Source: Gemmatimonadales bacterium
Lineage (GTDB): Bacteria > Gemmatimonadota > Gemmatimonadetes > Gemmatimonadales > GWC2-71-9
Assembly: GCA_036556025.1 (NCBI GenBank)
Contig: DATBKD010000053.1
Span: 20,326 to 84,325 of the forward strand
DNA length: 64,000 nt
Direction: 5' to 3'
This document shows positions 5,781 through 64,000 of this stretch, piece by piece. The notes under the pieces are model-generated. The model saw nothing but the letters and a program-made list of their open reading frames with translations, was not told the origin of the DNA and searched no databases. The position numbers and the translations under genes were made by a program. Each line of letters begins with the position of its first letter. The first letter of the stretch is position 1.

Positions 5781-5836
5781 GGCCCAAGGTGGCGGGCCGA
5801 TGCCGGGTGAGCCATGACGGCGATCACTCAGCCGTG

Positions 5837-14318: not shown

Positions 14319-14981
14319 GTGCTACAACGCTGGTTCGATGCCGCCCTCGAGTGGGCCGGATTGGACCACTCGACCGAAGAGCCGCTTCGCCTGGTGCGAC
14401 TGACGGCCGCCGTTGTTGCGTTGGCTGGGACCTGCCTTTCTCTCGCTCTCGGATGCAGCGGCGCCGAGCCGCGGGCGTTTGCCCTCATCGGGCCGCTGTG
14501 GGCGGTATATGGCCTGGTCGCCGGGGTGGCGACGGGGGTACTCGAGCCGGCCCTCGATGCGCTCGTCGGCATTCTGGGCGACGTCGGCCTGCGTCGGGCC
14601 GGCGGCGGATACTCGGCGATCGAGGCCATGATCGCCCGGGGTGAACTGGACGCCGCAGCTGAGGGGTACCGGGAGCGGGCCCGCAATCCGCTGGAGCGGA
14701 CCGAAGCCACGATTCGCCACGCTGCCCTCCTCGCGGGACCGCTGGATCAGCCGGAAAGCGCGGTCACCGAGCTGGATAATCTTCGGCACGGCCCGCTCTC
14801 GCCCCGGGACGAGTTTCGTGTCGGTCTCGCGCTGGTCGAGCTGTACCGCAACCGGCTGAGGGAGCCCGGCCGTGCGATGGGGGAACTGCGCCGTCTGATC
14901 GACCGTTACCCCGGAGAACCGGCGACAGCGCGGCTGCGGTCGATGCTGGCGGAAATGAAAGCAGTGAGAAGTGAGGAGTGA
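14319..14981 (+). CDS. Hypothetical membrane protein with a C-terminal helical (TPR-like) region
   Basis: Two hydrophobic segments followed by a helical Arg/Leu-rich region. GTG start. No family recognised. Confidence 0.55.
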   Translation: MLQRWFDAALEWAGLDHSTEEPLRLVRLTAAVVALAGTCLSLALGCSGAEPRAFALIGPLWAVYGLVAGVATGVLEPALDALVGILGDVGLRRAGGGYSAIEAMIARGELDAAAEGYRERARNPLERTEATIRHAALLAGPLDQPESAVTELDNLRHGPLSPRDEFRVGLALVELYRNRLREPGRAMGELRRLIDRYPGEPATARLRSMLAEMKAVRSEE

Positions 14982-14991
14982 GGAGTGAGCG
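14964..14991. repeat. Orphan purine-rich heptamer array GTGAGAA GTGAGGA GTGAGGA GTGAGCG
   Basis: Read directly. Stop TGA 14979-14981 lies inside unit 3. No complementary arm within the next 100 nt. Shares GTGAGGAGTGAGGAGT with the array at 59416-59431. Confidence 0.8.
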
Positions 14992-17766: not shown

Positions 17767-18866
17767 CCCACCTCCTGCGCTTCCAATACCTCATCCAGGC
17801 TTTGTTTGGCCTGGAGGATGTCGCTCCAGGGGTCGCCCCGCTTCTCCAGTCGATCGGGAACCGTTCGCAGGGTGAAATCGGTGGGATAGACCTTCTCCAA
17901 CTCCTCCCACCTAAGCGGGGTTGCGACCGTGCCACCGGCATGGCGCCGGGGGGAATAGGGCGCCGCCAGGGACTTTCCCCGGCTGTTCTGGTTGAAGTCG
18001 AAAAAGATCTTGCCCCGGCGGCGCGGAACCGACCACTCCAGGGTTACCTCCTTGGGATGGGCCTGCAGCGCCGCGCGACCGATGGTCTCGGCGACGTGGC
18101 GCACGGCGTCATAATCCAACGTGCGCACGATCGGAAGGTACAGATGCAGGCCGGTTCGGCCCGAGGTCTTGATGTAGGTGGAGAGGCCCAGCCCCTCGAG
18201 CAGCTCGCGAAGCTGCAGCGCGAGGGTGCGGGTCCGGTTGAACGCTTTGCGATGCAGCTCGGGCTCGGCGCCTCGGCTTTCCCGGCCGGAGTAGAGGTAC
18301 GGGTCCAGATCGAAGACGATGAAGTCGGGATAGTTGAGAACCGAGCGCTTCAGGGTGGCCTCGGAGCCATGAAACCTGCGGCCCAGCTTTCGAGCGTCCG
18401 GCTCCGGATCGGTGCGCGAAAACCAGGTGTGCAGCTCGAGGCCTGCCATCTGGCCGAGCCAGAGCAGGGTCACGGTGTTCTCGCAGAGCAGGTACTCCGT
18501 GTCGCGCCGGGTGCTGCTGGAATGAATCTTCACCACCTTGGCGAATGGCGGTACCGAGTCCCAGTGTTTCTGGAAGAAGCTCTTGCCGGTGACGCCGTTG
18601 GGGAATCGGGTAACGAACACCGGCCGCGCCGCCAGATGCGGCAGCATCCACTCGGCAACCCTGGCGAGGTACCGCAGCAGGTCGCGCTTGGTGAGCGGCT
18701 TGAGCTTACTTTCGCCCGGCCAGAGGACTTTGTCGAGGTTGGTGACGGGGAGCTCGTGGCCATCCACCGAGAGCTTGGTGCTCTGGTCGGGGGTGTCGAG
18801 TTGCTGCAGCAGGTCACGGACGGCGGCTTTCATACGTTTCCTCCCACCCGACCACCCTTTCGCCAC
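17763..18866 (-). CDS. NHEJ DNA polymerase/primase (stand-alone LigD Pol domain)
   Basis: Archaeo-eukaryotic primase motifs DFIVFDLDP and KTSGRTGLHLYLPI. Confidence 0.9.
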   Translation of the reverse strand: MAKGWSGGRKRMKAAVRDLLQQLDTPDQSTKLSVDGHELPVTNLDKVLWPGESKLKPLTKRDLLRYLARVAEWMLPHLAARPVFVTRFPNGVTGKSFFQKHWDSVPPFAKVVKIHSSSTRRDTEYLLCENTVTLLWLGQMAGLELHTWFSRTDPEPDARKLGRRFHGSEATLKRSVLNYPDFIVFDLDPYLYSGRESRGAEPELHRKAFNRTRTLALQLRELLEGLGLSTYIKTSGRTGLHLYLPIVRTLDYDAVRHVAETIGRAALQAHPKEVTLEWSVPRRRGKIFFDFNQNSRGKSLAAPYSPRRHAGGTVATPLRWEELEKVYPTDFTLRTVPDRLEKRGDPWSDILQAKQSLDEVLEAQEVG

Positions 18867-18868
18867 TT

Positions 18869-18895
18869 AGGCACGGAGGTGTGACCTCCGTGCCT
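18869..18895 (-). other. Perfect 12-bp intercistronic stem-loop between ku and the LigD-Pol gene
   Basis: AGGCACGGAGGT gtg ACCTCCGTGCCT read directly. No U-tract follows on the minus strand. GGGAGG RBS for the downstream gene follows. Confidence 0.7.
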
Positions 18896-18905
18896 CTGTG
18901 GTGAA

Positions 18906-19745
18906 TCAACTGACCTTCCGGGTGCGCCGGCGCGCGGCCGGGCGGGCCCGCTGGCGCGCGGCCGCCTTGGGCTTGGCGCCTTTGCGCGCGGCCTCGACGC
19001 TCTTCCGGAGAGCGTCGGCCAGATCGATGACCCTGGTCTCCTTCACCTGCGGCGCCTTCACGACCTCCTTGCCTTCCAGCTTGGCCTCGATCAGCTCCGC
19101 CAGCGCCTCGCGGTAGTGATCGTGGTATTCCGAGGGCTCGAACGGCTTCCGCAACAGCTCGATGAGGGCGAAGGCCATATCCAGCTCACGGTCGGTCACT
19201 CGGGTTCCCTTCAGGTCCACCTCGGGCGACTCCCGCACCTCGTCGGGGTAGTACAGCGTCTCCAGCATGATGGCGCCTTCCCGGGGACGCAGGGCGCAAA
19301 GCTGTTCCTTCTTCCGCAAGGTGATGGTCGCGATGGCCGTGAGGTTCTTCTTCTCCAGTGCCCGCAGCAGCAGGGCGTAGGGCTTTTCCGCCCGTTCTCC
19401 CGGCTCGAGATAGTAGCTGCGCTCGTAGAAGACCGGGTCGATCTCCTTTTCTTCCACAAACGCCGAAAGGTCGATGATGTGCTTGCTGGGCAACGGGAGC
19501 CGGTCGAAGTCCTGCTCGGTGAGCGTTACGTACTGATCTTTGGCGTATTCGTACCCGCGCACCGTCTCGTTCCAGGGGACCTCTACCTCGTCGGTGGGAC
19601 ACCAGCGCACCTGTTTCAGCCGGGTGCCGCACGTCGCGTGGAGCAGATGGAATGCGATGTCCTTGCTCTCAGTCGCACCGAAGAGCCGAACCGGTATGCT
19701 CACCATCCCGAAGCTGATTGAGCCGCTCCAGATCGCCCTCGCCAT
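18906..19745 (-). CDS. ku: Ku DNA end-binding protein
   Basis: MARAIWSGSISFGMVSIPVRLF is the canonical bacterial Ku N-terminus. Basic C-terminal tail. Start at internal ATG (cat 19743-19745). Confidence 0.92.
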   Translation of the reverse strand: MARAIWSGSISFGMVSIPVRLFGATESKDIAFHLLHATCGTRLKQVRWCPTDEVEVPWNETVRGYEYAKDQYVTLTEQDFDRLPLPSKHIIDLSAFVEEKEIDPVFYERSYYLEPGERAEKPYALLLRALEKKNLTAIATITLRKKEQLCALRPREGAIMLETLYYPDEVRESPEVDLKGTRVTDRELDMAFALIELLRKPFEPSEYHDHYREALAELIEAKLEGKEVVKAPQVKETRVIDLADALRKSVEAARKGAKPKAAARQRARPAARRRTRKVS

Positions 19746-19870
19746 TGAAGTCTCCTGGCGGGCCGGCATCGGGCCGGGCCCGGCTCGCCGCGTGAAGGAC
19801 GCATGTGGCCCGGGAGGCGGATCTTGCAGCGCTTTTCCACACCCCAAGCACACGATATCCACAGCGTTTT

Positions 19871-19899
19871 CAACATAAGTTGTTGACAACTAACAACTT
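19871..19899. promoter_or_regulatory. AT-rich cluster of GTTG/CAAC inverted repeats upstream of ku (candidate operator)
   Basis: CAACataaGTTGTTgACAACtaACAACTT. AAGTTGTT (19877-19884) is the exact reverse complement of AACAACTT (19892-19899). Nested GTTGT-tg-ACAAC. Confidence 0.4.
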
Positions 19900-19957: not shown

Positions 19958-21052
19958 TTACTGCGAAGCTGCCTTGATCGGTGCGGGTTTAGCGCTGGTC
20001 ACGGCGCGCAGGATCCGCCCGATGGCGCCGGAGTCGGCGGTCGTCACCGCAGGAGTGAGTGAATCGCCGGCCGGAACTGCGGGAAGGGCGATTTCGAGCG
20101 TGGCCGGCGCGGGGTCGATGGCCTGAATGGAGTCTGTCGTGGACGCTGTGGGACGTTTCGCCGTCGCTGATGCCGGCATGGTTGCGGGCGCGGGCGACGT
20201 GGACTTCGCGGCTTCCGCCGAGGTTACGATGGCGGGGGAGAACGCGGGACCCGCCGTCATCACAGTTCCGGGCGCGGTCGTCTGGCTGACCGATGCGGGA
20301 GCCGCCGGAGTGGTCTGCGCGAGCGTCGGACGAGGCGCGGTCTCCGCCAGCGACTTGGCTTCGGCGCCTGGAGCAACTGCCGAGACCGCCATCCGGGTGC
20401 AGACGATCGCGATGATTCCGATGATTGTCAGCTGGATCGGACGCCGAATCCAGGACCGCGATGGTTGAGGCACCGAAGGGGCGGACTCCTCCGCCCGCGC
20501 CGGTGGCTCCTCTTCCACCACTACCGCGGCTTCCCGGGCCATGTAGCTCGGCGGGCTGAACGCAGACCGGGTAAGCTCGAGCACCGGCGACGGAACTGGT
20601 GCTGGAATCGGAACCGGGGCGAGGTGGTACTGGATCGGTGCAGGGCGGTTCGGCTGCGGCGCCGGGGGCTGCATCGGAGCGGGGTGGCGCTGCACCGGAG
20701 CAGGGTGGTGGTGGACCGGAGTCGGGTGGTGCTGGACCGGAGTCGGGTGGTGCTGGACCGGAGCAGGATGCGGTGCCGGCGCCGACTGGGGCGCCGGCGA
20801 TTGGGGTCGCGGGCCACTCGACTTGAGAGCGGGCGTACGGGGCGGCGTCGGCTCGGCCGGGTGCAATGAGCTCGGGGGAAGCTCCAACGCCTTCTTATAG
20901 TGTGGATGAAACTCGATAGGCAGCCACTTCTGGGAAGCGGTATGGTAGATCCGGGCGCGGTTGGTGACCACGCCGTTGCGGATCGCGGTCGCCAACTCCT
21001 CGATCGTGCGGAAGACGGTTTCCTCGCCGCGTCCGACCTCGATCCGGTACAT
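19958..21052 (-). CDS. Membrane-anchored Pro/His/Ala-rich protein with a small N-terminal globular domain (GYF_2/DUF4339-like, tentative)
   Basis: Start MYRIEVGRGEE (cat 21050-21052). Low-complexity HHPxPVQ repeats, one TM (IQLTIIGIIAIVC), Ala/Thr/Pro-rich tail. Confidence 0.6.
   Translation of the reverse strand: MYRIEVGRGEETVFRTIEELATAIRNGVVTNRARIYHTASQKWLPIEFHPHYKKALELPPSSLHPAEPTPPRTPALKSSGPRPQSPAPQSAPAPHPAPVQHHPTPVQHHPTPVHHHPAPVQRHPAPMQPPAPQPNRPAPIQYHLAPVPIPAPVPSPVLELTRSAFSPPSYMAREAAVVVEEEPPARAEESAPSVPQPSRSWIRRPIQLTIIGIIAIVCTRMAVSAVAPGAEAKSLAETAPRPTLAQTTPAAPASVSQTTAPGTVMTAGPAFSPAIVTSAEAAKSTSPAPATMPASATAKRPTASTTDSIQAIDPAPATLEIALPAVPAGDSLTPAVTTADSGAIGRILRAVTSAKPAPIKAASQ
20690..20775. repeat. 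In-frame 21-bp tandem repeat encoding an HHP(A/T)PVQ heptapeptide (approximate bounds)
   Basis: GGACCGGAGTCGGGTGGTGCT occurs twice in tandem with degenerate flanking copies. The protein reads HPAPVQHHPTPVQHHPTPVHHHPAPVQRHPAPMQ. Confidence 0.7.
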
Positions 21053-27405: not shown

Positions 27406-28524
27406 TCAAGCGGCGGCAAAGGCGCGGATCAACTCGTCGTTCGACCTGGTGCGACGCAGATCGGTGATCAGGTCGGTCATGGCATTAATGGGCGACATGC
27501 CCGCAATGCGCTGACGCAGGAGACGCGAAACGGCAAGCGCATCCTCGGGCAGCAGAAGCTCTTCCCTCCGTGTCGCGCTGGCCACCAGATCTATCGCGGG
27601 GAAGATCCGGCGCTCGGCCAGCTCCCGGCTCAAGACCAGCTCGCTATTGCCGGTGCCCTTGAACTCCTCGAAGATCACCTGATCCATACGGCTCCCGGTG
27701 TCGACCAGGGCGGTGGCAATGATGGTGAGTGAGCCGCCGTGTGCGGGATCCACCTTGCGCGCGCTTCCCAGAAAGCGCTTGGGCCGCTCCAGCGACTGGG
27801 CATCCAGGCCACCGGAGAGCGTTCTCCCGGTTCCCTTTTCGACCGTGTTGTAGGCCCGCGCCAGCCGAGTCAGCGAGTCCACGATCAGCACCACGTCCCC
27901 TCCCAGCTCGACCCGGCGCCTGGCCCGCTCCAGCGTGAGCTCGGCCAGCGCGACGTGCTGGGTGGCGGGATTATCGAAGCTCGAAGCCACGACCTCGCCT
28001 ACGCCTGCCGTCTCCATCTCGAAGACTTCCTCCGGCCGCTCGTCCACCAGCAGGATGAGGAGCTCGGCGTCGGGGTAGTTGGCGCTCACTCCTTGAGCGA
28101 TGGCCTGGAGCACCATTGTCTTCCCAGCCTTGGCCGGAGCGACGATCAGAGCTCGTTGTCCCTTACCCAGGGGGCACAGCAGATCGATGACCCGGTTGGT
28201 GTAGTCCGGCTGTCCCTGGCGGACCAGCCCGAACTCCAGGCGGAGCTGCTCGTTCGGATGGATGGCGCTGAGACGATTGAATTCCGGGCGATGGCGGAGC
28301 TGATCGGGAGGCAGCCGGTTGATCGTACTGATCCCCTGGAGCGAAGGACCCCGTCCTTTCCCGGACGCTCGGGTCTCGCCCTCGATCTCGTCGCCGGGCC
28401 TGAGGCCGTACTGCCGAATCAGTTTTTCAGCGACATGGACGTCGCCGTTCGCAGGGAGATACCCTGCCTCACGACGCCGGAGAAAGCCGCTGCCTTTTCC
28501 GGCGATCTCCAAGACACCGAGCAT
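27406..28524 (-). CDS. rho: Transcription termination factor Rho (short form lacking the N-terminal helical Rho_N domain)
   Basis: The residues GVLEIAGKGSGFLRR align to E. coli Rho residues about 50 onward. Walker A APAKAGKT, Walker B LLVDERPEEV, ATALVDTGS, FKGTGNSELVLSR. The start codon overlaps the sufE stop (TGATG). Confidence 0.9.
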   Translation of the reverse strand: MLGVLEIAGKGSGFLRRREAGYLPANGDVHVAEKLIRQYGLRPGDEIEGETRASGKGRGPSLQGISTINRLPPDQLRHRPEFNRLSAIHPNEQLRLEFGLVRQGQPDYTNRVIDLLCPLGKGQRALIVAPAKAGKTMVLQAIAQGVSANYPDAELLILLVDERPEEVFEMETAGVGEVVASSFDNPATQHVALAELTLERARRRVELGGDVVLIVDSLTRLARAYNTVEKGTGRTLSGGLDAQSLERPKRFLGSARKVDPAHGGSLTIIATALVDTGSRMDQVIFEEFKGTGNSELVLSRELAERRIFPAIDLVASATRREELLLPEDALAVSRLLRQRIAGMSPINAMTDLITDLRRTRSNDELIRAFAAA

Positions 28525-33312: not shown

Positions 33313-34638
33313 ATGACGACTGTCGCGGCCCCCTCGCACGTCGACCCTCAGGCCATCGCCGGGCAGCTGCTCGAAGCCCGAGCGCGGACCATGCTCTTGA
33401 TCGCTCCTCTGAGCGATGAGGACCTGCGGCGCCAGCACGACCCTCTGATGAGCCCCATCCTGTGGGACCTGGGACACATCACCCACTTCGAAGAGCTCTG
33501 GCTCACCCGCAACCTCGAGGGACCCATCGAGTTCGTCGAGATGCCGGGCATGTTCAATCCATTCGAGCACCCCCGAAGCAAACGGGGCGCGCTGCCGCTC
33601 CCCAACTTGCGGGACTGCCGCGGGATCATGGACGAGATCCGGGGAAGGGTCCTGGCGCGACTCGCCGGCACGAACTTCTCCGGAAGCCACCCTCTGCTGC
33701 GCGAAGGCTATGTCTACCAGATGGTCTTGCAGCACGAATACCAGCACAACGAGACCATCCTGCAGACTCTCCAGCTCAAGCTGGGCCATCCGTACTCGCC
33801 CGTCGTGCGCTATGACCTGCCCCCGGTATCGGCGGATCCCCGCGCAGGAATTCGCGGGGAGATGGTGACTTTTCCAGGGGGAACGGTCGAGATCGGGACC
33901 GATGACCGAAGTGCCGCGTATGACAACGAGCGGCCCCGCCACCAGGTGGAGGTCGCGCCCTTCCGCATCGACGTCAATCCAGTCACCAACGGCGACTTCC
34001 TGATCTTCATCGCCGCCGGAGGCTATGCCACACCCGAGTACTGGTCCGAAGCTGGATGGCATTGGCTGACCGACTCGGGGGTGAACGCGCCGAAGTACTG
34101 GGAATTGGTGGATGGGGAATGGACCAACCGCTCCATGGATCGGATAGCCCCGGTTGACCCGCGCCATCCGGTTTGCCACATCTGCTTTCACGAGGCCGAA
34201 GCGTTTGCCCGTTTCGTCGGCAAGCGCCTGCCCACAGAGATTGAGTGGGAGGTGGCGGCCTCCTGGGAGCCCGACGGGGGCAAGCGGACTTATCCCTGGG
34301 GAGAGCAGCAGGCCGATCGTCACCTCGCCAACGTCGATCAGCTGGCCTTCGGCACCGCCGCAGTGGGCTCCTATCCCCAGAATGTCTCGCCACTCGGGTG
34401 CTACGGGATGATCGGGGACGTCTGGGAGTGGACCTCGACCGATTTCGGTCCCTGGCCCGGCTTCGAGAGCTTCCCCTACAAGGAGTACTCCGAAGTCTTC
34501 TTCGGCGCCGACTACAAGGTCCTGCGCGGGGGGTCGTGGGCGACTCGCCCTGGAGCGATTCGCAACACTTTCAGGAACTGGGACTACCCCATCCGCCGGC
34601 AGATTTTCAGCGGCGTGAGGTGCGCCCAAGATGCCTAG
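33313..34638 (+). CDS. egtB: Ergothioneine biosynthesis sulfoxide synthase (hercynine oxygenase) EgtB
   Basis: DinB_2-like N-domain (WDLGHITHFEELW) plus FGE-sulfatase-like C-domain (GDVWEWT, RGGSWA). Confidence 0.85.
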   Translation: MTTVAAPSHVDPQAIAGQLLEARARTMLLIAPLSDEDLRRQHDPLMSPILWDLGHITHFEELWLTRNLEGPIEFVEMPGMFNPFEHPRSKRGALPLPNLRDCRGIMDEIRGRVLARLAGTNFSGSHPLLREGYVYQMVLQHEYQHNETILQTLQLKLGHPYSPVVRYDLPPVSADPRAGIRGEMVTFPGGTVEIGTDDRSAAYDNERPRHQVEVAPFRIDVNPVTNGDFLIFIAAGGYATPEYWSEAGWHWLTDSGVNAPKYWELVDGEWTNRSMDRIAPVDPRHPVCHICFHEAEAFARFVGKRLPTEIEWEVAASWEPDGGKRTYPWGEQQADRHLANVDQLAFGTAAVGSYPQNVSPLGCYGMIGDVWEWTSTDFGPWPGFESFPYKEYSEVFFGADYKVLRGGSWATRPGAIRNTFRNWDYPIRRQIFSGVRCAQDA

Positions 34639-35617
34639 AATCTCTTCGCCCGCCGTCCGAGCGGCCCTGCGGCCCGACGGCAAGCCAGCCAACCTGCGGA
34701 TGCTCGCGGAAGTGGCTGAAGGTCTTTCCGCTCCTCAGAAGGAGCTGTCACCCAAGTACTTCTACGATCAGCGCGGGTCGGAGCTGTTCGAGGCCATCAC
34801 CCGGCTGCCGGAGTATTATCCTACCCGCACCGAGCGCGCGCTGCTCGAGGGTTGGATGCCCGAGCTGATGATCCAGCTCGGCACCCGGACGCTGATCGAG
34901 CTGGGCGCAGGGAACGCGGAGAAGAGCCGCATCATCCTCGACGCCATGCGCGCCGCCGGCTCCGCCGAGCTCTATGTGCCTATCGACGTCAGCGCCACCT
35001 TCCTGAGCCAGACCGCGGCTCGACTTCGGCTGGAGTATCCCGGTCTCCGGGTCGAGCCTGCGGTGGCCGACATCTCGGAGGAGCTCAACCTGCCTGGCCG
35101 GATGCCGCGGCCGGCTCTCTTCGCCTTCTTGGGGAGCACGATCGGCAACTTCTACCCTCCCGCTGCCATCCGTCTCCTCGGAAGAGTCCGTGCCGCTATG
35201 GCGCCGGAAGACCGGTTCCTGATGGGGGTAGATCTGCGCAAGGACATAGCCCGGCTCGAGGCGGCGTACAACGACAGCCAAGGCGTCACCGCCGAATTCA
35301 ACCGCAACATGCTGCGGGTGCTGAACCACGAGCTGGGCGCGGATTTCGATCCCTCGGCCTTCGAGCATCGGGCTTTCTATGAGCCGGTGGCTCACCGAAT
35401 CGAGATGCATCTGGTCTCCACCCGCGACCAACGCGTCACGATTCCGGGGCTGGGCCAGGTCGCGCTGGCTCGAGGCGAAACGATCCGCACGGAGATCAGC
35501 AGCAAGTACGATCGAGCCAGCGTCGCGGAGCTCTTCGATGCCGCCGGCTTGCGCATCGAAGCGTGGCCCACCGACCCGCACACCCCGTTCGGACTGGTGG
35601 TGGGAGCGCCCGTATGA
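34631..35617 (+). CDS. egtD: L-histidine N-alpha-methyltransferase EgtD
   Basis: PKYFYDQRGSELFEAITRLPEYYPTRTE, ELGAGNAEKS, FLGSTIGNF are hallmark EgtD motifs. Overlaps the egtB 3' end by 8 nt. Confidence 0.88.
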   Translation: MPRISSPAVRAALRPDGKPANLRMLAEVAEGLSAPQKELSPKYFYDQRGSELFEAITRLPEYYPTRTERALLEGWMPELMIQLGTRTLIELGAGNAEKSRIILDAMRAAGSAELYVPIDVSATFLSQTAARLRLEYPGLRVEPAVADISEELNLPGRMPRPALFAFLGSTIGNFYPPAAIRLLGRVRAAMAPEDRFLMGVDLRKDIARLEAAYNDSQGVTAEFNRNMLRVLNHELGADFDPSAFEHRAFYEPVAHRIEMHLVSTRDQRVTIPGLGQVALARGETIRTEISSKYDRASVAELFDAAGLRIEAWPTDPHTPFGLVVGAPV

Positions 35618-36870
35618 TTGCCGGAGGTCGTGCGGCGCTGCTGGCTCATCTGACGGAGCACGTCTTCGCCCCCCCGGTCAGCGCGTCCCTGACCCCGCGC
35701 CGGCTGGGCGCCGAGGTGGAGTTCATCCCGGTGGAGACCTCGACCGGGCGTCGGTGTCCCATCGAGACGGAAACGGGCCTCGGCACGCTTACCTTTCTTC
35801 GCCGCTTCGGCGGCAGGCAGGGATGGCGAGAGACTCGAACGTCCAAGGGAACCCCCTGCTTCCAGGTTGCCACAGGCGGGAACCTGACCTACGAGCCCGG
35901 CGGCCAGCTGGAGTACAGCTCGCCTCCATGTCACTCCGCGAGCAGTTTGCTTGCGGATTTGCGATCGGTGGTTCTGCCGCTCCGATCGGCCGCCGCGGGC
36001 GAGGGGATCACCCTGCTCGATGTCGGCATCGATCCGTTCAATACGATTTCGGGCGCTCCGCTCCTGGTGCATAGCGAGCGATACGACCGCATGGCGGAGT
36101 ATCTGGCACGGCGCAGTCCGGCTGGCGCCCGAATGATGCGTCAGACCGCGGCCTTCCAGATCAGCATCGATTTCGACGATGAGCCCTGGCTCCGCTGGCG
36201 AGTGCTCAACGCGGCGGCGCCCTATGTGGTCGCGATCTTTGCCAACTCAGCCGTCTACGCGGGAGAGCCCACCGGCTTGCAGAGCACCCGCGCCGATGTC
36301 TGGCGAACGCTGGACCCGACCCACACCGGCCTGCCCTATGACGCACGCTGTCCGGTGGAGGCGTATCTAGAGTTTGCATTGGCGGCCCCCGCCATGCTGC
36401 TGCCGACGGTGGATGGCGAATATCGTCCTTTCGGCGACTGGCTCGCCTGCGCCCGGCCGACCGCGGCGGAGTGGCACGATCATCTGAGCACGCTGTTCCC
36501 CGAGGTGCGGCCGCGGGGACATCTCGAGCTCCGCTCGGCGGACGCGGTTGCGCCGCAGTGGTACGCGGCCCCACTCGCCCTGGCAGTCGGCATTACCTAC
36601 GAGCCGGGAGCGCTACGCGCGGCAGCCGACCTGCTGGGACACGCCGATCTGGGCTTGCTGGAGCGGGCCGGCCGGCTGGGACTCCACGATCGGGCCATAG
36701 CGAGCACGGCCAGCCAGCTCGCGGAGATCGCCATCGCCGGGTGCGAGGGCCTGGGGCCCGGCTATTTCCACCCGAGCGACCTGGAGCAGGCGCGCGGGTT
36801 CTTTGAGCAGTACACCCGGAATGGCCGCGCGCCGGCGGATGACGTTGGGGGAGCGGAGAGGGCGGCGTAG
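35614..36870 (+). CDS. egtA: Glutamate-cysteine ligase family protein (EgtA-like, GCS2 family)
   Basis: LGAEVEFIPV, LTYEPGGQLEYSSPP. ATGA overlap with the egtD stop. Confidence 0.75.
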   Translation: MIAGGRAALLAHLTEHVFAPPVSASLTPRRLGAEVEFIPVETSTGRRCPIETETGLGTLTFLRRFGGRQGWRETRTSKGTPCFQVATGGNLTYEPGGQLEYSSPPCHSASSLLADLRSVVLPLRSAAAGEGITLLDVGIDPFNTISGAPLLVHSERYDRMAEYLARRSPAGARMMRQTAAFQISIDFDDEPWLRWRVLNAAAPYVVAIFANSAVYAGEPTGLQSTRADVWRTLDPTHTGLPYDARCPVEAYLEFALAAPAMLLPTVDGEYRPFGDWLACARPTAAEWHDHLSTLFPEVRPRGHLELRSADAVAPQWYAAPLALAVGITYEPGALRAAADLLGHADLGLLERAGRLGLHDRAIASTASQLAEIAIAGCEGLGPGYFHPSDLEQARGFFEQYTRNGRAPADDVGGAERAA

Positions 36871-53067: not shown

Positions 53068-53862
53068 ATGGACCTCGAGCTGAGAGGCCGCAGGGCACTG
53101 GTTACCGGCTCGACCGCCGGCATCGGGTTCGCCACGGCCCAGGCGCTCGCGGCCGAGGGCGCTGCCGTCATGGTGAATGGCCGGGGCGAGGATCGAGTCG
53201 CCAGTGCCATTCGTGCCATCAAGGCCGCGGTTCCTGGGGCCCATGTGGGAGGCGTCGCCGCCGACCTCGGTACCGCAGCAGGTTGTGAGCTGGTGACCCG
53301 AGAGGTGCCCTGGGTTGATATCCTGGTCAACAATGTCGGTATCTTCGAGCCTAAACAGTTCCAGGACATTTCCGACGCCGACTGGCTTCGCTTCTTCGAG
53401 ACCAACGTGCTCAGTGGAGTGCGCCTCAGCCGGTTCTATCTGCCCGAGATGCTGGCTCGGAACTGGGGGCGCATCGTATTCGTCTCCAGCGAATCGGCGC
53501 TGCAGATTCCCGTCGAAATGATTCACTACGGCATGACCAAGACGGCGCAGCTGGCGGTGGCACGAGGGCTCGCGGAGACGACAGTTGGCACTGGCGTGAC
53601 GGTGAACAGTGTGCTGCCGGGCCCCACGGCGTCCGAGGGCGTCGGCGATTTCGTCCAGCGTCTCGCGCAGAGCCGGGGCACCGATTTCGAGACCATGGAG
53701 CGCGAGTTCTTCGCCACCGCGCGGCCCAGCTCGCTGCTCCGCCGGTTTGCCAAGCCGGAAGAAGTGGCAGCCATGATCGTCTACATCTGCAGTGCCCGAG
53801 CTTCGGCCACCAACGGCGCGGCGCTGCGAGTGGATGGGGGAGTGGTGAGGGCAGTGGTATAG
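53068..53862 (+). CDS. SDR-family oxidoreductase
   Basis: TGSTAGIGFA cofactor motif, NNVG, YGMTK catalytic YxxxK. Confidence 0.9.
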   Translation: MDLELRGRRALVTGSTAGIGFATAQALAAEGAAVMVNGRGEDRVASAIRAIKAAVPGAHVGGVAADLGTAAGCELVTREVPWVDILVNNVGIFEPKQFQDISDADWLRFFETNVLSGVRLSRFYLPEMLARNWGRIVFVSSESALQIPVEMIHYGMTKTAQLAVARGLAETTVGTGVTVNSVLPGPTASEGVGDFVQRLAQSRGTDFETMEREFFATARPSSLLRRFAKPEEVAAMIVYICSARASATNGAALRVDGGVVRAVV

Positions 53863-53870
53863 GGAACTGC

Positions 53871-54015
53871 GGTGAAGCGCGAAACGTGCAAAGTGAAGAG
53901 CGAGGGCGAGGGATGAGGAGGCCACCCCGCTGCTCCCCTTCACTCTTCACTCTCCACCCTCCAACCTCCACCCTTCACTCTTCACTTTTCACGTTTTCAC
54001 CTTCACCTTCACCCC
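53871..54015. repeat. Heptamer-word inverted repeat: purine arm (GGTGAAG...GTGAAGA GCGAGG GCGAGG...) and 11-unit pyrimidine arm (CCCTTCA CTCTTCA CTCTCCA CCCTCCA ACCTCCA CCCTTCA CTCTTCA CTTTTCA ...)
   Basis: Read directly. Outer arms: GTGAAGcgcGAAACGTGcAAAGTGAAGAG versus the reverse complement of CTCTTCACTTTTCACGTTTTCACCTTCAC. Fills the whole spacer from 9 nt after the SDR stop up to ATG 54016. Confidence 0.9.
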
Positions 54016-58488: not shown

Positions 58489-59352
58489 TCAGCGCTTTCG
58501 CAGCAGCACGTCTTCGCTCCTGATGTTCGGCCCCACCAACAGTACCATCAGCCGCGATTCGTAGCCCGGGGCGCTCACCCGCACGTACTGAGTCCGGCAA
58601 TTGTCTACCAGAGACAGATCGAACCGGAAGTGATATTCGCCCTGCTCGTCGGTGAAGGTCACGTAGGGTGTGCCCAGCATCTGGAGATGTGCGCCGGCCA
58701 GCGGTCGGCCGTCATTCTGCCGGAAGATCTTTCCTTGCACCACCCCGAACTGGATGGGGCCTGCGGAATCCCGGGGTGCGACCGGGTGGGGGATGCAGCG
58801 CTCCGGGTTATCCGGGAGATAGGCTTCCATCGGACGTGAGGCCTGAGGACCTGCACCCGGGCGGGGGCCCAAACGCGGCCGGCCGAAGATTCGGCGAGCC
58901 TCCGACTCCATCGTCGCCTCGGGCTCAGGGGATGGCGCCGGCGCTGGTGCACTGGGCGTAGCGGTGCCGGTCGGGCTGCCGCCGATGGGCTGCTTGGGCG
59001 CCTCCTCACCTTCGCTGCGCTTGGCCTCCGGTGGTGCGTTCGCCTCCGGCTCGGGCCGGGGCTGAGCCTTTTTCGGTGGCGGGGCCATCAAGCGGGGAGG
59101 CGGCTTGGGTGACTCCAGCCTTGGCGGCGGCGGAACCACCCGGGGCCGCGGTTGGGGAGGGGGTAGAGGTACGTAGATCATCTCGACCTGCCGGTTTGGC
59201 CGGGCCGCCCGGTTCTCCTCGTCCGCAGGCAGAACCTCCCCCTGCCGGGAGTGCTGAATGACGAGCAACAGGATCAGCACGTGCACCCCGCTGCTGACGG
59301 CGAGGGAGAACCAGGGTCGCTTTTTGGCGAGGGGGTCCGGCGATTTGAGCAA
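58489..59352 (-). CDS. Membrane-anchored Pro-rich protein with C-terminal carboxypeptidase-regulatory-like (CarboxypepD_reg) domain
   Basis: TM (VHVLILLLVI), PPPQPRPRVVPPPPRLESPKPPP linker, C-terminal VQGKIFRQNDGRPLAGAHLQ...DEQGEYHF. Proposed TTG start at 59352. The ATG at 59463 would translate the repeat arm. Confidence 0.65.
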   Translation of the reverse strand: MLKSPDPLAKKRPWFSLAVSSGVHVLILLLVIQHSRQGEVLPADEENRAARPNRQVEMIYVPLPPPQPRPRVVPPPPRLESPKPPPRLMAPPPKKAQPRPEPEANAPPEAKRSEGEEAPKQPIGGSPTGTATPSAPAPAPSPEPEATMESEARRIFGRPRLGPRPGAGPQASRPMEAYLPDNPERCIPHPVAPRDSAGPIQFGVVQGKIFRQNDGRPLAGAHLQMLGTPYVTFTDEQGEYHFRFDLSLVDNCRTQYVRVSAPGYESRLMVLLVGPNIRSEDVLLRKR

Positions 59353-59360
59353 AGAAGTAT

Positions 59361-59515
59361 GCAGTAAGTGGTTAGCAGTAAGGAGAAAGCAGTGACCAGT
59401 TTCTAAAAGTAAGGAGTGAGGAGTGAGGAGTAAGGAGGAGCAGTGTGAAACGCGGGAGCACACCTTACTCCTTACTCCTCACTCCTTACTTTAGACTGCT
59501 CACTGCTTACTGTCC
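59361..59515. repeat. Long heptamer-word hairpin: ...GTAAGGA GTGAGGA GTGAGGA GTAAGGA... loop ...CCTTAC TCCTTAC TCCTCAC TCCTTAC...
   Basis: Read directly. 59409-59435 pairs with 59463-59489 (27 positions, 1 G-T). Outer segments GCAGTGACCAGTTTCTAAAA / TTTAGACTGCTCACTGC extend the stem. Occupies the entire divergent spacer and ends 2 nt before ATG 59518. Confidence 0.9.
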
Positions 59516-59517
59516 TT

Positions 59518-60246
59518 ATGGAATTGGCTGCCTGGACCCCATACGTCGCGGCGATGCTGGCCTACCACAATGGTGCGCGGGACGCCACCATCGTGGTCTA
59601 CGATGATTACGAACGAGACGAAGCTCCCATTGGGTACTTCTACCGGGAGCCGGCCGATTTCCCACTTCTGGAATGCCGGGCCCTGGAGCTCTGCCGGGGA
59701 CGCGTGCTCGATATCGGCGCCGGGTCCGGCTGTCACGCCCTCGCGTTGCAGCAGCGGGGGCTCGCGGTAACCGCGATCGAGGTGGCGCCTGAGCTGGTCG
59801 AGATCCTCCGCGCGCGCGGCGTCCGAGATGCCCGGCTCGCGACCTGGATGGATTTCGAGGCCGAGCCCTACGACACGGTCTTCATCATGATGAACGGCGT
59901 AGGTCTGGCGGAGACTCTTCCCGGGCTGCGGCCTTTTCTCCGGCGGCTGCGCACGCTGATTCGCAGTGACGGGCAGGTGCTGGCTGATTCGACCGATGTC
60001 GGGGTGTACCTGGACCCCGAGGCCGGCCGAACCGGCAGGCTGGAGCGCCCCGACGGCCGTTACCTCGGCGAGCTGCATTTTCAGTTGGAGTTCGAGGGGA
60101 GAAAGGGAGCGCCGTTCTCGCAGCTCTATGTCGATCCCGGCACGCTCAGCCGGCACGCCGCGGCCGAGGGGTGGGACTGCGAGATTCTCCTGCCTCCGGA
60201 TGAGTACGGCCACTACCTGGTGCGACTGGCGCCCAAAACGCCGTGA
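59518..60246 (+). CDS. Class I SAM-dependent methyltransferase
   Basis: Motif I VLDIGAGSGCHALAL. Post-I acidic residue (AIE). Confidence 0.8.
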   Translation: MELAAWTPYVAAMLAYHNGARDATIVVYDDYERDEAPIGYFYREPADFPLLECRALELCRGRVLDIGAGSGCHALALQQRGLAVTAIEVAPELVEILRARGVRDARLATWMDFEAEPYDTVFIMMNGVGLAETLPGLRPFLRRLRTLIRSDGQVLADSTDVGVYLDPEAGRTGRLERPDGRYLGELHFQLEFEGRKGAPFSQLYVDPGTLSRHAAAEGWDCEILLPPDEYGHYLVRLAPKTP

Positions 60247-60313
60247 GCAATGAGCAGTGACAGGTACGAGGCGGCGCTCCTCCTTACTTCTCACTGCTCA
60301 CTGCTTACTGAGG
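60243..60313. repeat. Heptamer-word inverted repeat: GTGAGCA ATGAGCA GTGACAG GTACGAG ... TCCTTAC TTCTCAC TGCTCAC TGCTTAC
   Basis: Read directly. The methyltransferase stop TGA (60244-60246) is in unit 1. The stop of the convergent cphA-like gene (60298-60300) is in the right arm. Confidence 0.88.
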
Positions 60314-62019
60314 TCTTCTCCCGCCTTCCACCCCGATCCCTGCAGCCGCTCGATCAAACGCATCACCTGTGCCCGATCCTGGTGGATGGGCAGCACCAGC
60401 AGATCACCCGGTCGTGCCCACTCGAGCGCATGGTGTACTGCCGCCACCTCCGACCCTGGAAAGCTCACTGCCTCGGGAGGCAGCCCCAGCCGCTGCAACT
60501 CGTCCATCAACAAGGCAGGCACCTCGCCAGGACTTCGCCCTCGCAGATACTGCTCCAGCTCCTTGACGATGGCGTAGTCGGGATGGAGTCTCATCGCTTC
60601 CTGAGCCAGCTCGCGAATGGCGCTGTCGCTGCGATCCCCGGCCTGGCCGAGCATCACCAGCCGCCGTCCGGAGCCGAGCGTCGAAGCGGTGGCGGCCAGC
60701 GCCCCCATGCCGTGGGGATTGTGGGCGAAGTCGATCAGCAGCCGGACCCCACCCAGTTCGATCAGGTTGGCCCGCCCAGGATTGTCGGCGACACTGCGGC
60801 CGAAGTTCTGGAGCGTCGCCCGGATGACATCGGTCGGGAGGTGCAGTCGTTGCGCGGCGGCGATGGCGGCAAGCGCATTGGCGACGTTGTGGGTCGCGAT
60901 GCCGCCGAGCGTGATAGTGACCTCGTCCACCCTCGCTACCGGCACACGCTTGGCACCGGTTGCCAGCACCAGCGCGTCGCCTTCCAGGAGCGCCGCCTGG
61001 CCTCCCGTGGCAAGATGATCGCGGATTTCGGCGCGTTCGGGATGCAAAGAGAACCAGATCACCGGCGCGGATAGCTGTGGCCGGGCGCCAACCAGGGTGG
61101 GATCGTCGGCGTTCATCACCACCCGCCCGTCCGGCCGCACCGCGCGGGCGGTGACCAGTTTGGTCGCGGCCAGATCGGCCAGGCTCTGGACCCCAAATTC
61201 ACCCAGGTGGTCATCGGCGATGTTGGTGATGACCGCGACATCCGCCTGCTCCACCGGCAAGCCGCGGCGGAGTATGCCACCCCGCGCGGTCTCCAGGACC
61301 GCGGCTTCGACCCCGGGATCGCGCAGGACCATTCGGGCGCCGCTCGGGCCTGAGTAGTCGCCCTCCGCCAGCCAGCGGTCTCCGACCTTGACTCCGTCGG
61401 TGGAGGTGCTGCCCGGGGTGCGGCCCGCCCGGGCCAGCATCGCCGCGAGCAGCCGCACGATGGTCGTCTTGCCGTTGGAGCCGGTCACCAGTGCCAGCGG
61501 AACGTCGTGCACTCGCGACCAGTCTACCGCCTGGGGTGCCGGAAGCTCGTTCTCTGGCCAGACCGTGACCCCGGCACCGGTCCCCACCGATACCTGGTCC
61601 TCGCCGGTCAGAAAGGTGACGCCACGGCGCCGTGCCATGCTCCTGAGCGCCAGGAGCGGTGGATTGCTCTCCGCCTGGATGGCCTCCCGGAGACGTGCCG
61701 CGTCGGGTTCCAGCGTGGAGGGGCGCGCCCCGCCCATCTCGGCCTCGGCGCTGGCCCAGGCCCACTCGTTGAGCTCCGTCGCAGCGTACAGGGCATCGGG
61801 CGGAGCACTCAGCGCCAGGCTTGCGCCTCCGGTGAAGGCACGGGTACTGAGTGTTTCATTCCCCCAGCCGACGGCTTCAAGCATTCGCGCGGCATTCCGC
61901 CGCCAGGCTGCGATGGTCTGGGCCCGGTGTGTGTCGTCCATCGCCACGTCCACTACCGCGCCCGGCCGGTCGAGCAGAAGTCCGGGTCCAGTCAGCCGGC
62001 GGGAATCGAGCAGAGGCAT
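60298..62019 (-). CDS. Cyanophycin-synthetase-like protein lacking the ATP-grasp domain (CphA N-domain-like start plus Mur-ligase-type domain)
   Basis: VTGSNGKTT P-loop. GPSGARMVLRDPGVEAAVLETARGGILRRG and ITNIADDHLG parallel the M domain of the adjacent CphA. The N-terminus SRRLTGPG resembles the CphA N-terminus. Confidence 0.75.
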   Translation of the reverse strand: MPLLDSRRLTGPGLLLDRPGAVVDVAMDDTHRAQTIAAWRRNAARMLEAVGWGNETLSTRAFTGGASLALSAPPDALYAATELNEWAWASAEAEMGGARPSTLEPDAARLREAIQAESNPPLLALRSMARRRGVTFLTGEDQVSVGTGAGVTVWPENELPAPQAVDWSRVHDVPLALVTGSNGKTTIVRLLAAMLARAGRTPGSTSTDGVKVGDRWLAEGDYSGPSGARMVLRDPGVEAAVLETARGGILRRGLPVEQADVAVITNIADDHLGEFGVQSLADLAATKLVTARAVRPDGRVVMNADDPTLVGARPQLSAPVIWFSLHPERAEIRDHLATGGQAALLEGDALVLATGAKRVPVARVDEVTITLGGIATHNVANALAAIAAAQRLHLPTDVIRATLQNFGRSVADNPGRANLIELGGVRLLIDFAHNPHGMGALAATASTLGSGRRLVMLGQAGDRSDSAIRELAQEAMRLHPDYAIVKELEQYLRGRSPGEVPALLMDELQRLGLPPEAVSFPGSEVAAVHHALEWARPGDLLVLPIHQDRAQVMRLIERLQGSGWKAGEDLSKQ

Positions 62020-62033
62020 CTAGGCCCGCCGGC

Positions 62034-64000
62034 TCAGTCGTCCGCTTCTCGCGGTAGCCACACCCCGCGGACGTCTCTGACGAATTCGCGCCGGCTGTCC
62101 TCCACCAGTAACGGTGGTGGCGGTGCCGGCACGGCCACCGGCTCGCGCGGCGTGCGGCGCCGCTCCGCGGCTCTTGGCGGCGCCTCCGGACGGAAATGGA
62201 TGACCTGCTTCCACGAGCGGGTGATGGCATCTCCGAAGATCAGCACCAGGTCGCTCGGTTGAGCCTCGCGTAGCGCGGCGTCCACCGCGGCCTGCTCGTC
62301 CGGGATCACCAGGATCTGGTCCGCCGAGACGCCATTGGCGAGCAGGGCGTCGCGCAGCAGGTGAGGCACCTCGTCCGGCTTGCGGCCCCGCAGCTGGTCG
62401 TCCCGGCGGCAGATGTACCGGTCGAACGACCCCGCCGCGATCTTTCCGATCTCGGCGATGTCTTCATCTCTTCGATCTCCCGGGGCGGCCAGGACGCAGA
62501 GTCGCCGGCCGGTCACCTCCATGCGCTCCACCAGCTGGCACATGGCCTGGACCGCGGCCGAATTGTGGCCGTAGTCGAGGATCACCTTGAAGGGGTGCTC
62601 GTCGTAGATGTTCATCCGGCCAGGCGCCTGGAAGAACGTGGTGTCGAACGTGCGGAGTCCGTGGCGCACGTCTTCCAGCTTGAGCCCCATGCTGAAGGCC
62701 ATGGCAGCGGCGAACATCGCGTTCTGCACGTTGTGCATCGCCCGGCCTTCCAACGTCGCTGGAATCAGATGGGTCCAGAGCAGCGGTATGTGGGCTCCGC
62801 GATCGTAGATCGTGATCATCTGCCCCTTGATGCCCGACTCCAGCACCACGCCGCGACCACCGGCCTTGATGTGCTCGCCCACCAGTTCGTGAGTGGGATC
62901 CATGGTCACGTAGCACAGGTGCTTGGCCTCGGTATAGTCGGCCATCTTGAGGCAGAGCGGGTCCTCGGCATTGAGGATGGCGGTGTCGCGCGCGACCTCT
63001 ACCACGATCCGCTTGACCTGCGCCAGCTGTTCCAGGGTGCCGACGCCGCGGAGGCCCAGATGGTCGGACTTGATGTTCAGGACCGCCCCGACATCGCAAT
63101 GACGCACCCCCATTCCTGCGCGCAACAGCCCTCCGCGGGCGATCTCCAGCACGGCCACGTCTACGTGCGGGTCGCTCAGGACCATTCGGGTGGCCACCGG
63201 CCCGGTCATATCGCCGGCCACCGTGCGCTGGCCGTCGATATACACGCCGTCGGTCGAGGTGAGTCCCACATGGTGGCCGGCGAGCTTGTGGATGTGCGCC
63301 AGCATCCGGGCGGTCGTCGTCTTCCCGTTGGTTCCGGTGACCGCCGCGATGGGGATTCGGCTGGGCGACCCGGGCGGGAACAGCATGTCCATCACCGGGC
63401 CGGCGACGTCGCGCGCCCGCCCTTCGCTCGGCGCCATGTGCATGCGAAAGCCCGGGGCGGCGTTCACCTCGCAGATTGCGCCGCCGACCTCCTTGTACGA
63501 CTCGGTGATGTCGGTGCTCAGGAAATCCACTCCTCCCACGTCCAGCCCGATGGCCTTTACCGCCCGCACGGCCATGCTGACGTTGTCGGGATGCACCACA
63601 TCGGTCATGTCGGTGGCCGTCCCGCCGGTTGAGAGATTGCCGGTGGACCGGAGGAACACCCGCTCGCCGGACGCCGGGACCGTCTCCCGGGTGTAGCCCT
63701 TCCGAGCCAGCAGGGTCTCCGCTTGCGTATCGAATACCAGCCGGGTGAGCACTTTCTCATGTCCGATGCCGCGGCGGGGATCGCTGTTGACCTCCTCTAC
63801 CAGCTGCTCCACCGTGTGCACCCCATCTCCAACGACGTGCCCCGGCACCCGGCGCGCGACGGCGATCAACTCGCCGTTGATCACCAGCATGCGGTGGTCG
63901 TCGCCGGTGATAAAGGTTTCGACGATGACGCTGCGGCTGTGCTCCCGGGCGATCTCGAACGCGGAGCGAACCTGGTCAGCGGTGCTCAGATGAATCGAGA
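62034..64000 (-). CDS. cphA: Cyanophycin synthetase CphA (partial; the N-terminus lies beyond the window end)
   Basis: ATP-grasp segment (the frame stays open upstream of the track's Met: ...VIVETFITGDDHRMLVINGELIAVARR), NAAPGFRMH, then a Mur-ligase domain (VTGTNGKTT, NIKSDHLG). Pro-rich C-terminal tail. Confidence 0.9.
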   Translation of the reverse strand, partial: SIHLSTADQVRSAFEIAREHSRSVIVETFITGDDHRMLVINGELIAVARRVPGHVVGDGVHTVEQLVEEVNSDPRRGIGHEKVLTRLVFDTQAETLLARKGYTRETVPASGERVFLRSTGNLSTGGTATDMTDVVHPDNVSMAVRAVKAIGLDVGGVDFLSTDITESYKEVGGAICEVNAAPGFRMHMAPSEGRARDVAGPVMDMLFPPGSPSRIPIAAVTGTNGKTTTARMLAHIHKLAGHHVGLTSTDGVYIDGQRTVAGDMTGPVATRMVLSDPHVDVAVLEIARGGLLRAGMGVRHCDVGAVLNIKSDHLGLRGVGTLEQLAQVKRIVVEVARDTAILNAEDPLCLKMADYTEAKHLCYVTMDPTHELVGEHIKAGGRGVVLESGIKGQMITIYDRGAHIPLLWTHLIPATLEGRAMHNVQNAMFAAAMAFSMGLKLEDVRHGLRTFDTTFFQAPGRMNIYDEHPFKVILDYGHNSAAVQAMCQLVERMEVTGRRLCVLAAPGDRRDEDIAEIGKIAAGSFDRYICRRDDQLRGRKPDEVPHLLRDALLANGVSADQILVIPDEQAAVDAALREAQPSDLVLIFGDAITRSWKQVIHFRPEAPPRAAERRRTPREPVAVPAPPPPLLVEDSRREFVRDVRGVWLPREADD

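Follow-up and report, generated by a model that had tools for sequence, protein, structure and literature searches.

Two heptamer-array palindromes around a methyltransferase gene in a Gemmatimonadales bacterium: probable members of an intergenic repeat class rather than recombination boundaries

A 64-kb stretch of DNA from an uncultured Gemmatimonadales bacterium (the window; GC content ~66%) carries a gene for a class I S-adenosylmethionine (SAM)-dependent methyltransferase that is bracketed by two palindromes, each assembled from tandem 7-nt units. Upstream lies a divergent gene for a membrane-anchored CarboxypepD_reg-domain protein and downstream the convergent cphA', which encodes a Mur-ligase-type half of cyanophycin synthetase and is followed by full-length cphA. 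The 57 predicted proteins of the window were scanned against Pfam, and the locus was compared with 32 Gemmatimonadota loci from GTDB genomes, 24 metagenome contigs and contigs obtained by exact protein look-up (numbered L001, L002 and so on). The methyltransferase has 711 homologues, those with names being Gemmatimonadales, and its protein has a 100% identity match on a JGI metagenome contig (L001). The features of the locus are as follows.

58489-59352, minus strand: CarboxypepD_reg-domain protein, membrane-anchored, upstream of and divergent from the methyltransferase, start codon TTG 59352
59361-59515, no strand assigned: upstream heptamer-array palindrome, defined by inverted arms, fold and tandem-repeat calls, filling the divergent spacer 59353-59517
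59361-59441, no strand assigned: left arm of the upstream palindrome, purine-rich, units GCAGTAA, GGAGAAA, AGTAAGG and AGTGAGG
59442-59462: loop of the upstream palindrome
59463-59515, no strand assigned: right arm of the upstream palindrome, pyrimidine-rich, units CCTTACT, CCTCACT and GCTCACT
59518-60246, plus strand: class I SAM-dependent methyltransferase, 242 aa, Pfam Methyltransf_25/11
60243-60313, no strand assigned: downstream heptamer-array palindrome, overlapping the stop codons of both convergent genes
60243-60266, no strand assigned: left arm of the downstream palindrome, units GTGAGCA, ATGAGCA and GTGACAG
60267-60284: loop of the downstream palindrome
60285-60313, no strand assigned: right arm of the downstream palindrome, TACTTCT, CACTGCT, CACTGCT and TACTG
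60298-62019, minus strand: cphA', downstream of and convergent with the methyltransferase

The upstream palindrome has core arms of 30 nt (59406-59435 and 59463-59492) that are 97% complementary, with outer extensions to ~59361 and ~59515. RNA folding of 59345-59530 gave -91.7 kcal/mol, compared with -51.2 +/- 3.8 kcal/mol for shuffled sequences (z -10.7; 0 of 200 shuffles as good), and Tandem Repeats Finder (TRF) called a period of 7 at 59408-59445 and 59463-59490. The element takes up nearly all of the 165-nt spacer between TTG 59352 on the minus strand and ATG 59518. The downstream palindrome is shorter, with 24-nt arms (60243-60266 and 60285-60308) that are 83% complementary, a fold of -38.1 kcal/mol (z -4.2) and a period of 7 at 60286-60310 by TRF. 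Both are tandem arrays of AGTGAGG, AGTAAGG, GCAGTGA and their complements, and the upstream left arm is 91% complementary to the downstream right arm over 34 nt. Both are present base for base in a second assembly (JGI 3300036837; 100% identity). These results bear out a first-pass annotation of the sequence in three respects: two hairpins, real by arms and folds and far beyond chance, bracket the methyltransferase; the upstream one lies in the divergent spacer and reaches almost to ATG 59518; and the two fill their spacers with units of one word family. The same annotation had the downstream element running from stop codon to stop codon, which is correct at the methyltransferase end, where the stem begins at G60243, one base ahead of the stop TGA 60244-60246, but not at the other, where the cphA' stop (TCA 60298-60300 on the plus strand) lies inside the right arm, ~10 nt before the end of the stem. 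The last four codons of cphA' and its stop are thereby part of the right arm.

The two palindromes belong to a larger set. The window contains eight heptamer arrays or hairpins, compared with 0.1 expected in shuffles, and the longest and most complementary of its long inverted repeats are the heptamer elements. At least four words are used (AGCTAAC, ACGGGAA, GTGAAGA and the GTGAG/GTAAG family), the GTGAG/GTAAG family occurring at four loci, and the eight elements occupy two convergent, three co-directional and three divergent junctions. The remaining six are listed here.

4084-4209, no strand assigned: AGCTAAC / TTAGCTG heptamer palindrome at a convergent junction
5830-5853, no strand assigned: short single-arm AGCTGTC heptamer array
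6923-7012, no strand assigned: ACGGGAA / CCGTTTA heptamer palindrome between co-directional genes, ending 10 nt before ATG 7022
14963-14989, no strand assigned: single-arm AGTGAGG array of the GTGAG/GTAAG family, lying in a divergent spacer immediately before a start codon
31724-31802, no strand assigned: GTGAG/GTAAG-family element between co-directional genes
53828-54012, no strand assigned: GTGAAGA / CTTCACT heptamer palindrome between co-directional genes, ending 4 nt before ATG 54016

Related loci totalling 392 kb contain 61 short-unit arrays, of which 42 have a period of 7. The GTGAG/GTAAG family was also found in two distant genomes, L030 (HR33) and L031 (Acidobacteria), and unrelated Bacteroidota loci (L034-L081) contain heptamer arrays or hairpins at 7 per 100 kb (e.g. 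L055:823-925 and L071:6816-6873). When the Bacteroidota words were compared with those of the window, 2 matched exactly and 17 with one mismatch, where 5.75 matches were expected (P ~0.0005, by a crude null model), the words AGCTGTC and GTGAAGA being common to both, exactly or nearly so (window 4161-4209, 5830-5853 and 53938-53996). The heptamer-palindrome class is abundant in this Gemmatimonadales lineage and occurs also in Acidobacteriota and Bacteroidota loci. We consider it likely that both hairpins at the methyltransferase are independent members of a class of intergenic 7-nt-unit palindromes of the kind known as short tandemly repeated repetitive (STRR) elements, that they are not recombination sites, and that the methyltransferase gene they enclose is ordinary and was inherited vertically.

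The comparison with relatives bears directly on this reading. Most Gemmatimonadales loci in the comparison keep the order AAA-ATPase / CarboxypepD_reg gene / methyltransferase / cphA' / cphA, at protein identities of 66-87%, and in every one of the loci compared the methyltransferase is present and syntenic. Most of these syntenic loci have no hairpin: their divergent start codons lie only ~18-35 nt apart (cat-tcctcggaagataaggcc-ATG), and the stops of the methyltransferase and cphA' are 10-20 nt apart or overlap. The variable parts are the neighbours, since the CarboxypepD_reg gene is missing in some genomes and the cphA cluster has been lost in L002, L082, L083 and L109, with a 30-nt remnant of the cphA' 3' end kept in L002 (L002:2636-2700).

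The two hairpins have separate histories. A palindrome of the same family stands at the same place before the methyltransferase ATG in seven of seven close relatives (L002, L082, L083, L106, L107/L108 and L109), whose methyltransferase genes diverge by 12-21% at the nucleotide level. These upstream palindromes are 230-290 nt long and have long near-perfect stems (-146 to -209 kcal/mol), with differing unit counts and loops. Their shared family and position point to a single origin of the upstream element, in the ancestor of this subclade and within a very short divergent spacer. The downstream element was found only in the window and in L106, at the identical junction TGA | element | TCTTCTC, while the site is empty (TGA|TCTTCTC) in L107/L108, which the methyltransferase tree places as sister to L106. 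With the site filled in L106 and empty in its sister, the element must either have been lost precisely or have been gained more than once at one and the same position. Side observations at this junction concern palindromes of 8-nt units (GCGGGTAA / GCGGGTAG / CAGCGGGA), which occur between the methyltransferase and cphA' in other Gemmatimonadales (L004:2604-2800, L014:4715-4960, L017:4722-4783 and L033:4740-4900); the L014 copy is lopsided, with arms of 14 and 3 units. The sequence GGTAGCGGGT, present in the cphA' 3' end of element-free relatives, could be the local seed for the GCGGGTAA 8-mer word. Local seeding as a source of words in general (GGAAGATAAGG in element-free spacers beside GAAGTAAGG, and GGTAGCGGGT beside the GCGGGTAA 8-mers) is suggestive but leaves the recurrence of one family at unrelated loci unexplained.

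Turnover of the elements is rapid. L082 and L083 are 1.3% apart in the methyltransferase gene and identical in the downstream DNA, yet their upstream elements are only 76% identical; between L082:900-1162 and L083:10-312 the arm unit counts differ and the inner cores of the loops are entirely different (GTCACCCTGAGGGAGCC... versus CGTCATCCCGAGCGGAGCGAGGGA...). We read this difference as very recent remodelling. The inner cores of the relatives' loops resemble head-to-head dimers of CGTC-tagged repetitive extragenic palindromes (REPs), for example CGTCATCCCGAGCGGAGCGAGGGA... and GTCACCCTGAGGGAGCC..., and a literature search with inner-core sequence returned only unrelated matches, to the shortest string. 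No REP-like core was found in the two palindromes of the window, where GTCATCCCGAGCG-like matches are at chance level. Because CGTC-type cores are lacking, the window copies resemble an empty host palindrome, or one that has been reduced.

Replacement of whole words was seen when six orthologous spacers of the window lineage (the window and L001) were compared with those of L106. An array or hairpin is present in both lineages at five of the six, and two of these five use unrelated words (GTGAAGA versus GTCGTTG, and GGCGGTAA versus ACTTCTC); the L106 spacer orthologous to window 53828-54012 has a GTCGTTG-word hairpin instead. The spacer between iadA and the gene for a methyl-accepting chemotaxis protein (MCP) shows a compensatory change at the level of the unit, GTGAAAC/GTTTCAC versus GTGAAGG/CCTTCAC, and the MCP-PAS junction displays a clean presence/absence of 128 nt. 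Compared with the flanking genes the elements evolve much more rapidly, yet their arms remain complementary, so that position and pairing are kept and sequence is replaced.

The arms also have a marked polarity. Of 16 compositionally asymmetric hairpins, 15 have their purine-rich arm on the 5' side and their pyrimidine-rich arm on the 3' side, an arrangement that, in a palindrome, is the same whichever strand is read. All three frames of the purine arm contain stop codons; the pyrimidine arm, which abuts the next start codon, contains almost no stops and no ATG, GTG or TTG. A gene entering an element is therefore stopped at once, and a gene that follows one is preceded by start-free sequence. 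Since the pyrimidine arm is nearly free of stops, open reading frames (ORFs) and gene callers run into the arms, and the CarboxypepD_reg gene provides an example. The JGI gene call on L001 (L001:3-638, corresponding to window 58826-59463) uses a start codon inside the hairpin, GTG 59463, which is an artefact of the open pyrimidine arm together with an AAGGAG unit upstream. The first-pass annotation preferred TTG 59352 to a start at 59463, a codon that it gave as ATG and that is in fact GTG. Its preference is supported: 14 relatives preserve the N-terminus that begins at TTG 59352, LLK(S/P)P..(K/R)RPW and then a hydrophobic anchor, and L106 and L013 have in-frame stops just upstream of the equivalent start. 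Likewise, the 37 residues that the in-hairpin start would add are a translation of the repeat, as had been proposed, and the hairpin-encoded residues are not conserved in relatives. In L106 and L107 automated gene calling breaks the CarboxypepD_reg gene up or cuts it short.

Motifs within the upstream element were considered individually. The inner-arm unit TAAGGAG (59408-59437 and 59463-59490) equals the Shine-Dalgarno (SD) consensus and has the complement CTCCTTA, which imitates the 16S rRNA 3' end; the methyltransferase ATG is without an SD sequence in seven of the seven genomes that bear the element. An SD/anti-SD role as a general explanation was set aside because the other word families (AGCTAAC, ACGGGAA, GTGAAGA and GCGGGTAA) are not SD-like. 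Two hexamers, TACTGT (59508-59513) and TAGACT (59492-59497), look TAnnnT-like by eye; they are not conserved in six orthologous elements, and we make no promoter claim for them.

The elements were compared with known systems. Units of cyanobacterial STRR sequences include CCCCAGT, TTGGTCA and CAACAGT. By analogy, the closest system appears to be these heptanucleotide hairpins: 7-bp repeats able to form hairpins occur in cyanobacteria in promoter regions, upstream of hoxW and between hupS and hupL, and an effect on transcript stability or translational coupling has been proposed for them (PMC2670836). The likeness lies in intergenic, hairpin-capable tandem 7-nt units in promoter regions and between co-transcribed genes, whose sequence varies by strain while the structure is kept; in the elements described here we find at least three tandem 7-nt units in non-coding DNA, inverted hairpin-forming arrays and hypervariable sequence with retained structure. 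Membership is by architecture alone, as the window words (AGTGAGG, AGTAAGG, AGCTAAC and GTGAAGA) differ. Further differences are the host, a high-GC member of the Gemmatimonadota, with copies also in Acidobacteriota and Bacteroidota loci, the predominance of a palindromic form with purine-5'/pyrimidine-3' polarity, the overlap with stop codons and the REP-like dimers in the loops of relatives. A second comparison is with the TAACTGA heptamer direct repeats found between genes in Beggiatoaceae, Cyanobacteria and Bacteroidetes (MacGregor 2015, PMC4679880). These share the intergenic 7-nt arrays ending a few nt from start codons, the stops in the forward and open frames in the reverse direction and the patchy distribution across phyla; they differ in being almost all direct (one inverted set among 170), whereas here long inverted hairpins are the rule and many words occur per genome.

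Other palindromic systems match in part. Like REPs, bacterial interspersed mosaic elements (BIMEs) and REP doublets forming hairpins (REPINs), the elements are intergenic palindromes, plausibly transcribed, that lie at 3' ends or between genes and vary in presence between strains, and termination or mRNA stabilisation has been proposed for both. The resemblance to CGTC-type REP dimers is confined to the inner cores of relatives (CGTCATCCCGAGCGGAGCGAGGGA in head-to-head pairs) and does not extend to the window copies, whose arms are tandem heptamers rather than a fixed 8-13-bp tagged stem, with no conserved GTAG or CGTC tetranucleotide tag, fixed size or nearby RAYT gene. The downstream element (60243-60313) recalls an intrinsic terminator in being a stable stem-loop just after a stop codon at a convergent junction, but its stem is much longer than the canonical GC-rich one of 5-20 bp, it has no U-tract and the consensus scan does not see it. 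An integron attC site likewise is an imperfect palindrome of 60-150 nt placed right after a single promoter-less ORF; here there are no R''/R' cores, integrase, cassette array or gene presence/absence, and a second, upstream palindrome has a different history. Membership in the REP/REPIN, miniature inverted-repeat transposable element (MITE), attC and intrinsic-terminator classes was rejected in each case on at least one defining feature. The window gave no match to Rfam 15 covariance models at the gathering threshold, and six related loci gave at E <= 1 only sub-threshold matches to miRNA precursors, such as any long hairpin gives. No description of heptamer hairpins of this type in Gemmatimonadota was found in the literature searched.

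The first-pass annotation likened the pair of hairpins to a cassette boundary, which would make the methyltransferase a gene cassette and the hairpins its recombination sites, attC-like or similar. The idea draws on the delimitation of one gene, within a few bases, by two palindromes of the same family and on the fact that the relatives that lost the cphA cluster have a rearrangement point just downstream of this gene. It had been suggested that variable presence of the methyltransferase with its flanks, and same-family bracketing more frequent than chance, would speak for such a boundary; both checks were run and neither came out that way. The gene is stable and syntenic with or without hairpins, most of the loci being hairpin-less, and what varies is the cphA cluster and the CarboxypepD_reg gene. 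In a simulation over the ~60 gene junctions of the window, bracketing of a gene by any two elements had p = 0.42-0.87 and by two of the same family 0.10-0.32, as expected by chance. The phylogenetic distributions of the two hairpins differ. No match to the attC core sites R'' (RYYYAAC) or R' (GTTRRRY) was found in 59340-59530 or 60230-60330, and filled and empty sites at the methyltransferase/cphA' and MCP/PAS junctions revealed no target-site duplication. The annotation was right that no recombinase lies in the window, in that no integrase, transposase or other recombinase domain was detected by Pfam in the 57 predicted proteins, a few short gaps lying outside the scan. Together these results contradict the cassette idea, and we regard it as exceedingly improbable.

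Alternatively, the hairpins could have been copied from a mobile element that is non-autonomous and resembles a MITE or REPIN; its terminal inverted repeats would be multi-unit heptamer arrays, and its transposase would be encoded elsewhere in the genome. Sharp filled/empty polymorphisms would fit this, as would the spread of the GTGAG/GTAAG family over four window loci and the distant genomes L030 and L031, the inclusion of the non-periodic GGAGGAGC in the 34-nt match between the two palindromes, and the CGTC-tagged REP-like dimers that occupy the loops of relatives and differ between near-identical strains, since REP dimers nested in longer palindromes are on record (PMC3733652). In the 64 kb and the loci sampled, however, the copies have no common length, end, interior or word; several unrelated words coexist per genome and orthologous spacers hold different ones; no junction compared has a target-site duplication; the arms are unequal, as independent slippage would give; the REP-like core is wholly absent from the window copies; and none of the 57 window ORFs has a transposase domain. 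Mobility of this kind seems to us unlikely. A different proposal would treat the arrays as binding sites for a sequence-specific DNA- or RNA-binding protein, with the palindromic layout secondary; candidates would be a single-strand binder of the Csp/S1 type, each monomer of which would read one heptamer, or else a protein with a nucleoid or regulatory function. It would account for the strict 7-nt period, the limited repertoire of words common to phyla (the excess of matches with Bacteroidota given above), the single-arm arrays at 14963 and 5830 and the typical end 2-10 nt before start codons, as with TAACTGA repeats, whose proposed binders are Csp, S1 or CsrA (PMC4679880). Against it, at least four unrelated words coexist in one genome and are exchanged at orthologous spacers, which makes a single specific binder unlikely; no candidate protein is linked to the loci; and the arms stay complementary through rapid turnover, which points to the duplex or hairpin as the thing maintained. 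We hold binding arrays to be improbable.

For the STRR-like reading, the data lead us to a model in which the arrays would grow by replication slippage of 7-nt units, while the complementarity of the arms would be kept by intrastrand template switching, arm-to-arm conversion or selection; the unequal arms of the L106 downstream element and of L014 fit slippage acting on each arm separately. CGTC-tagged REP-like dimers would nest secondarily in the loops of relatives. The elements may be transcribed and, as RNA stem-loops, may serve as punctuation of transcripts or add to their stability, the downstream one as a two-way transcript end or a 3'-stabilising or protective hairpin for the convergent pair and the upstream one as a 5'-leader structure. 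The upstream element would be carried in 5' leaders because the ancestral 18-35-nt spacer forced each promoter into or beyond the partner gene. The window encodes a Rho termination factor (27406-28524, minus strand; Rho_RNA_bind and ATP-synt_ab), and termination could therefore be factor-dependent, so that the genome need not rely on U-tract terminators.

A number of observations weigh against this account. Scans of 59100-60500 for sigma-70 promoters and intrinsic terminators found none (0 terminator-like sites), and the role as RNA stem-loop, whether terminator or stabiliser, is one that we infer from the DNA. A comparison of G.U strand asymmetry and of sense and antisense fold energies across six co-directional elements gave no consistent preference for the sense strand, so that constraint at the RNA level is not demonstrated; the upstream element alone folds better on the methyltransferase-sense strand in six of seven orthologues, themselves not independent of one another. 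Neither hairpin is essential, given that relatives lack both, and because arms are often unequal in length the structure is not strictly preserved along the array as a whole. The recurrence of one word family at several loci and the 34-nt match with its GGAGGAGC could instead mean copy-and-paste mobility. Finally, short-read metagenome assemblies may misreport unit numbers.

A bolder version of the STRR-like reading would make heptamer-array palindromes a self-renewing, phylum-spanning intergenic class, produced by a specific mechanism and not by generic slippage, and kept at fixed junctions as transcript punctuation while the sequence is continually replaced. Renewal might proceed by synthesis in steps of 7 nt, templated by the hairpin or relying on template switches, that draws on a preferred repertoire of words. 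The fixed positions with swapped words, the covariation of arms by whole units, the polarity in 15 of 16 hairpins and the sharing of words between Gemmatimonadota and Bacteroidota are hints in this direction, although we think it rather unlikely that the full proposal is correct.

Further observations concern the surroundings of the locus and the wider window. A full cyanophycin cluster adjoins the methyltransferase (window 60298-63890; L001:1473-11421) and comprises cphA', cphA, a Peptidase_S51 cyanophycinase and an isoaspartyl-dipeptidase-like amidohydrolase; genes for an MCP and a PAS-GGDEF-EAL protein follow the amidohydrolase. A non-homologous end-joining operon at 16762-19889 on the minus strand encodes an ATP-dependent DNA ligase (LigD ligase domains), a LigD primase-polymerase and Ku, with a simple 22-bp hairpin (18859-18905) between the Prim-Pol and Ku genes. 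Three adjacent plus-strand genes at 33313-36870 carry the domain set of ergothioneine biosynthesis: FGE-sulfatase with DinB_2 (EgtB-like), Methyltransf_33 (EgtD-like) and GCS2 (EgtA-like). A 21-nt tandem repeat, GCTGGACCGGAGCCGGGTGGT (20668-20764; 4.6 copies, 88% matches), lies in a small ORF with no Pfam match (20465-20869) and gives an in-frame repeat of 7 residues in the protein. In L002 the first ~80 nt of contig JBIOUY010000157 (L002:4-83, versus window 57946-57867) are a 91% inverted copy of sequence slightly further in, and the resulting end hairpin, the source of sub-threshold Rfam miRNA matches, is probably a fold-back assembly artefact.

The dominance of heptanucleotides among the long simple-sequence repeats of bacteria, and the function of STRR hairpins, have been in question since about 1990. 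The elements described here are an instance, in a new phylum, of a known but mechanistically unexplained kind, and what appears notable is that conserved positions, replaced words and polarity occur together with a repertoire of words apparently shared with Bacteroidota loci, the sharing being judged against a crude null. Such palindromes mislead gene callers, which extend ORFs into the open pyrimidine arm, as at the JGI start GTG 59463 and at the ends of cphA' and the methyltransferase, and they mimic the boundaries of cassettes or mobile elements without being such. With its filled and empty junctions in close relatives, remodelled elements in near-identical strains, clear polarity and nested REP-like guests, this lineage is useful for the heptamer question and makes models of slippage or template switching, and of transcript punctuation, directly testable.

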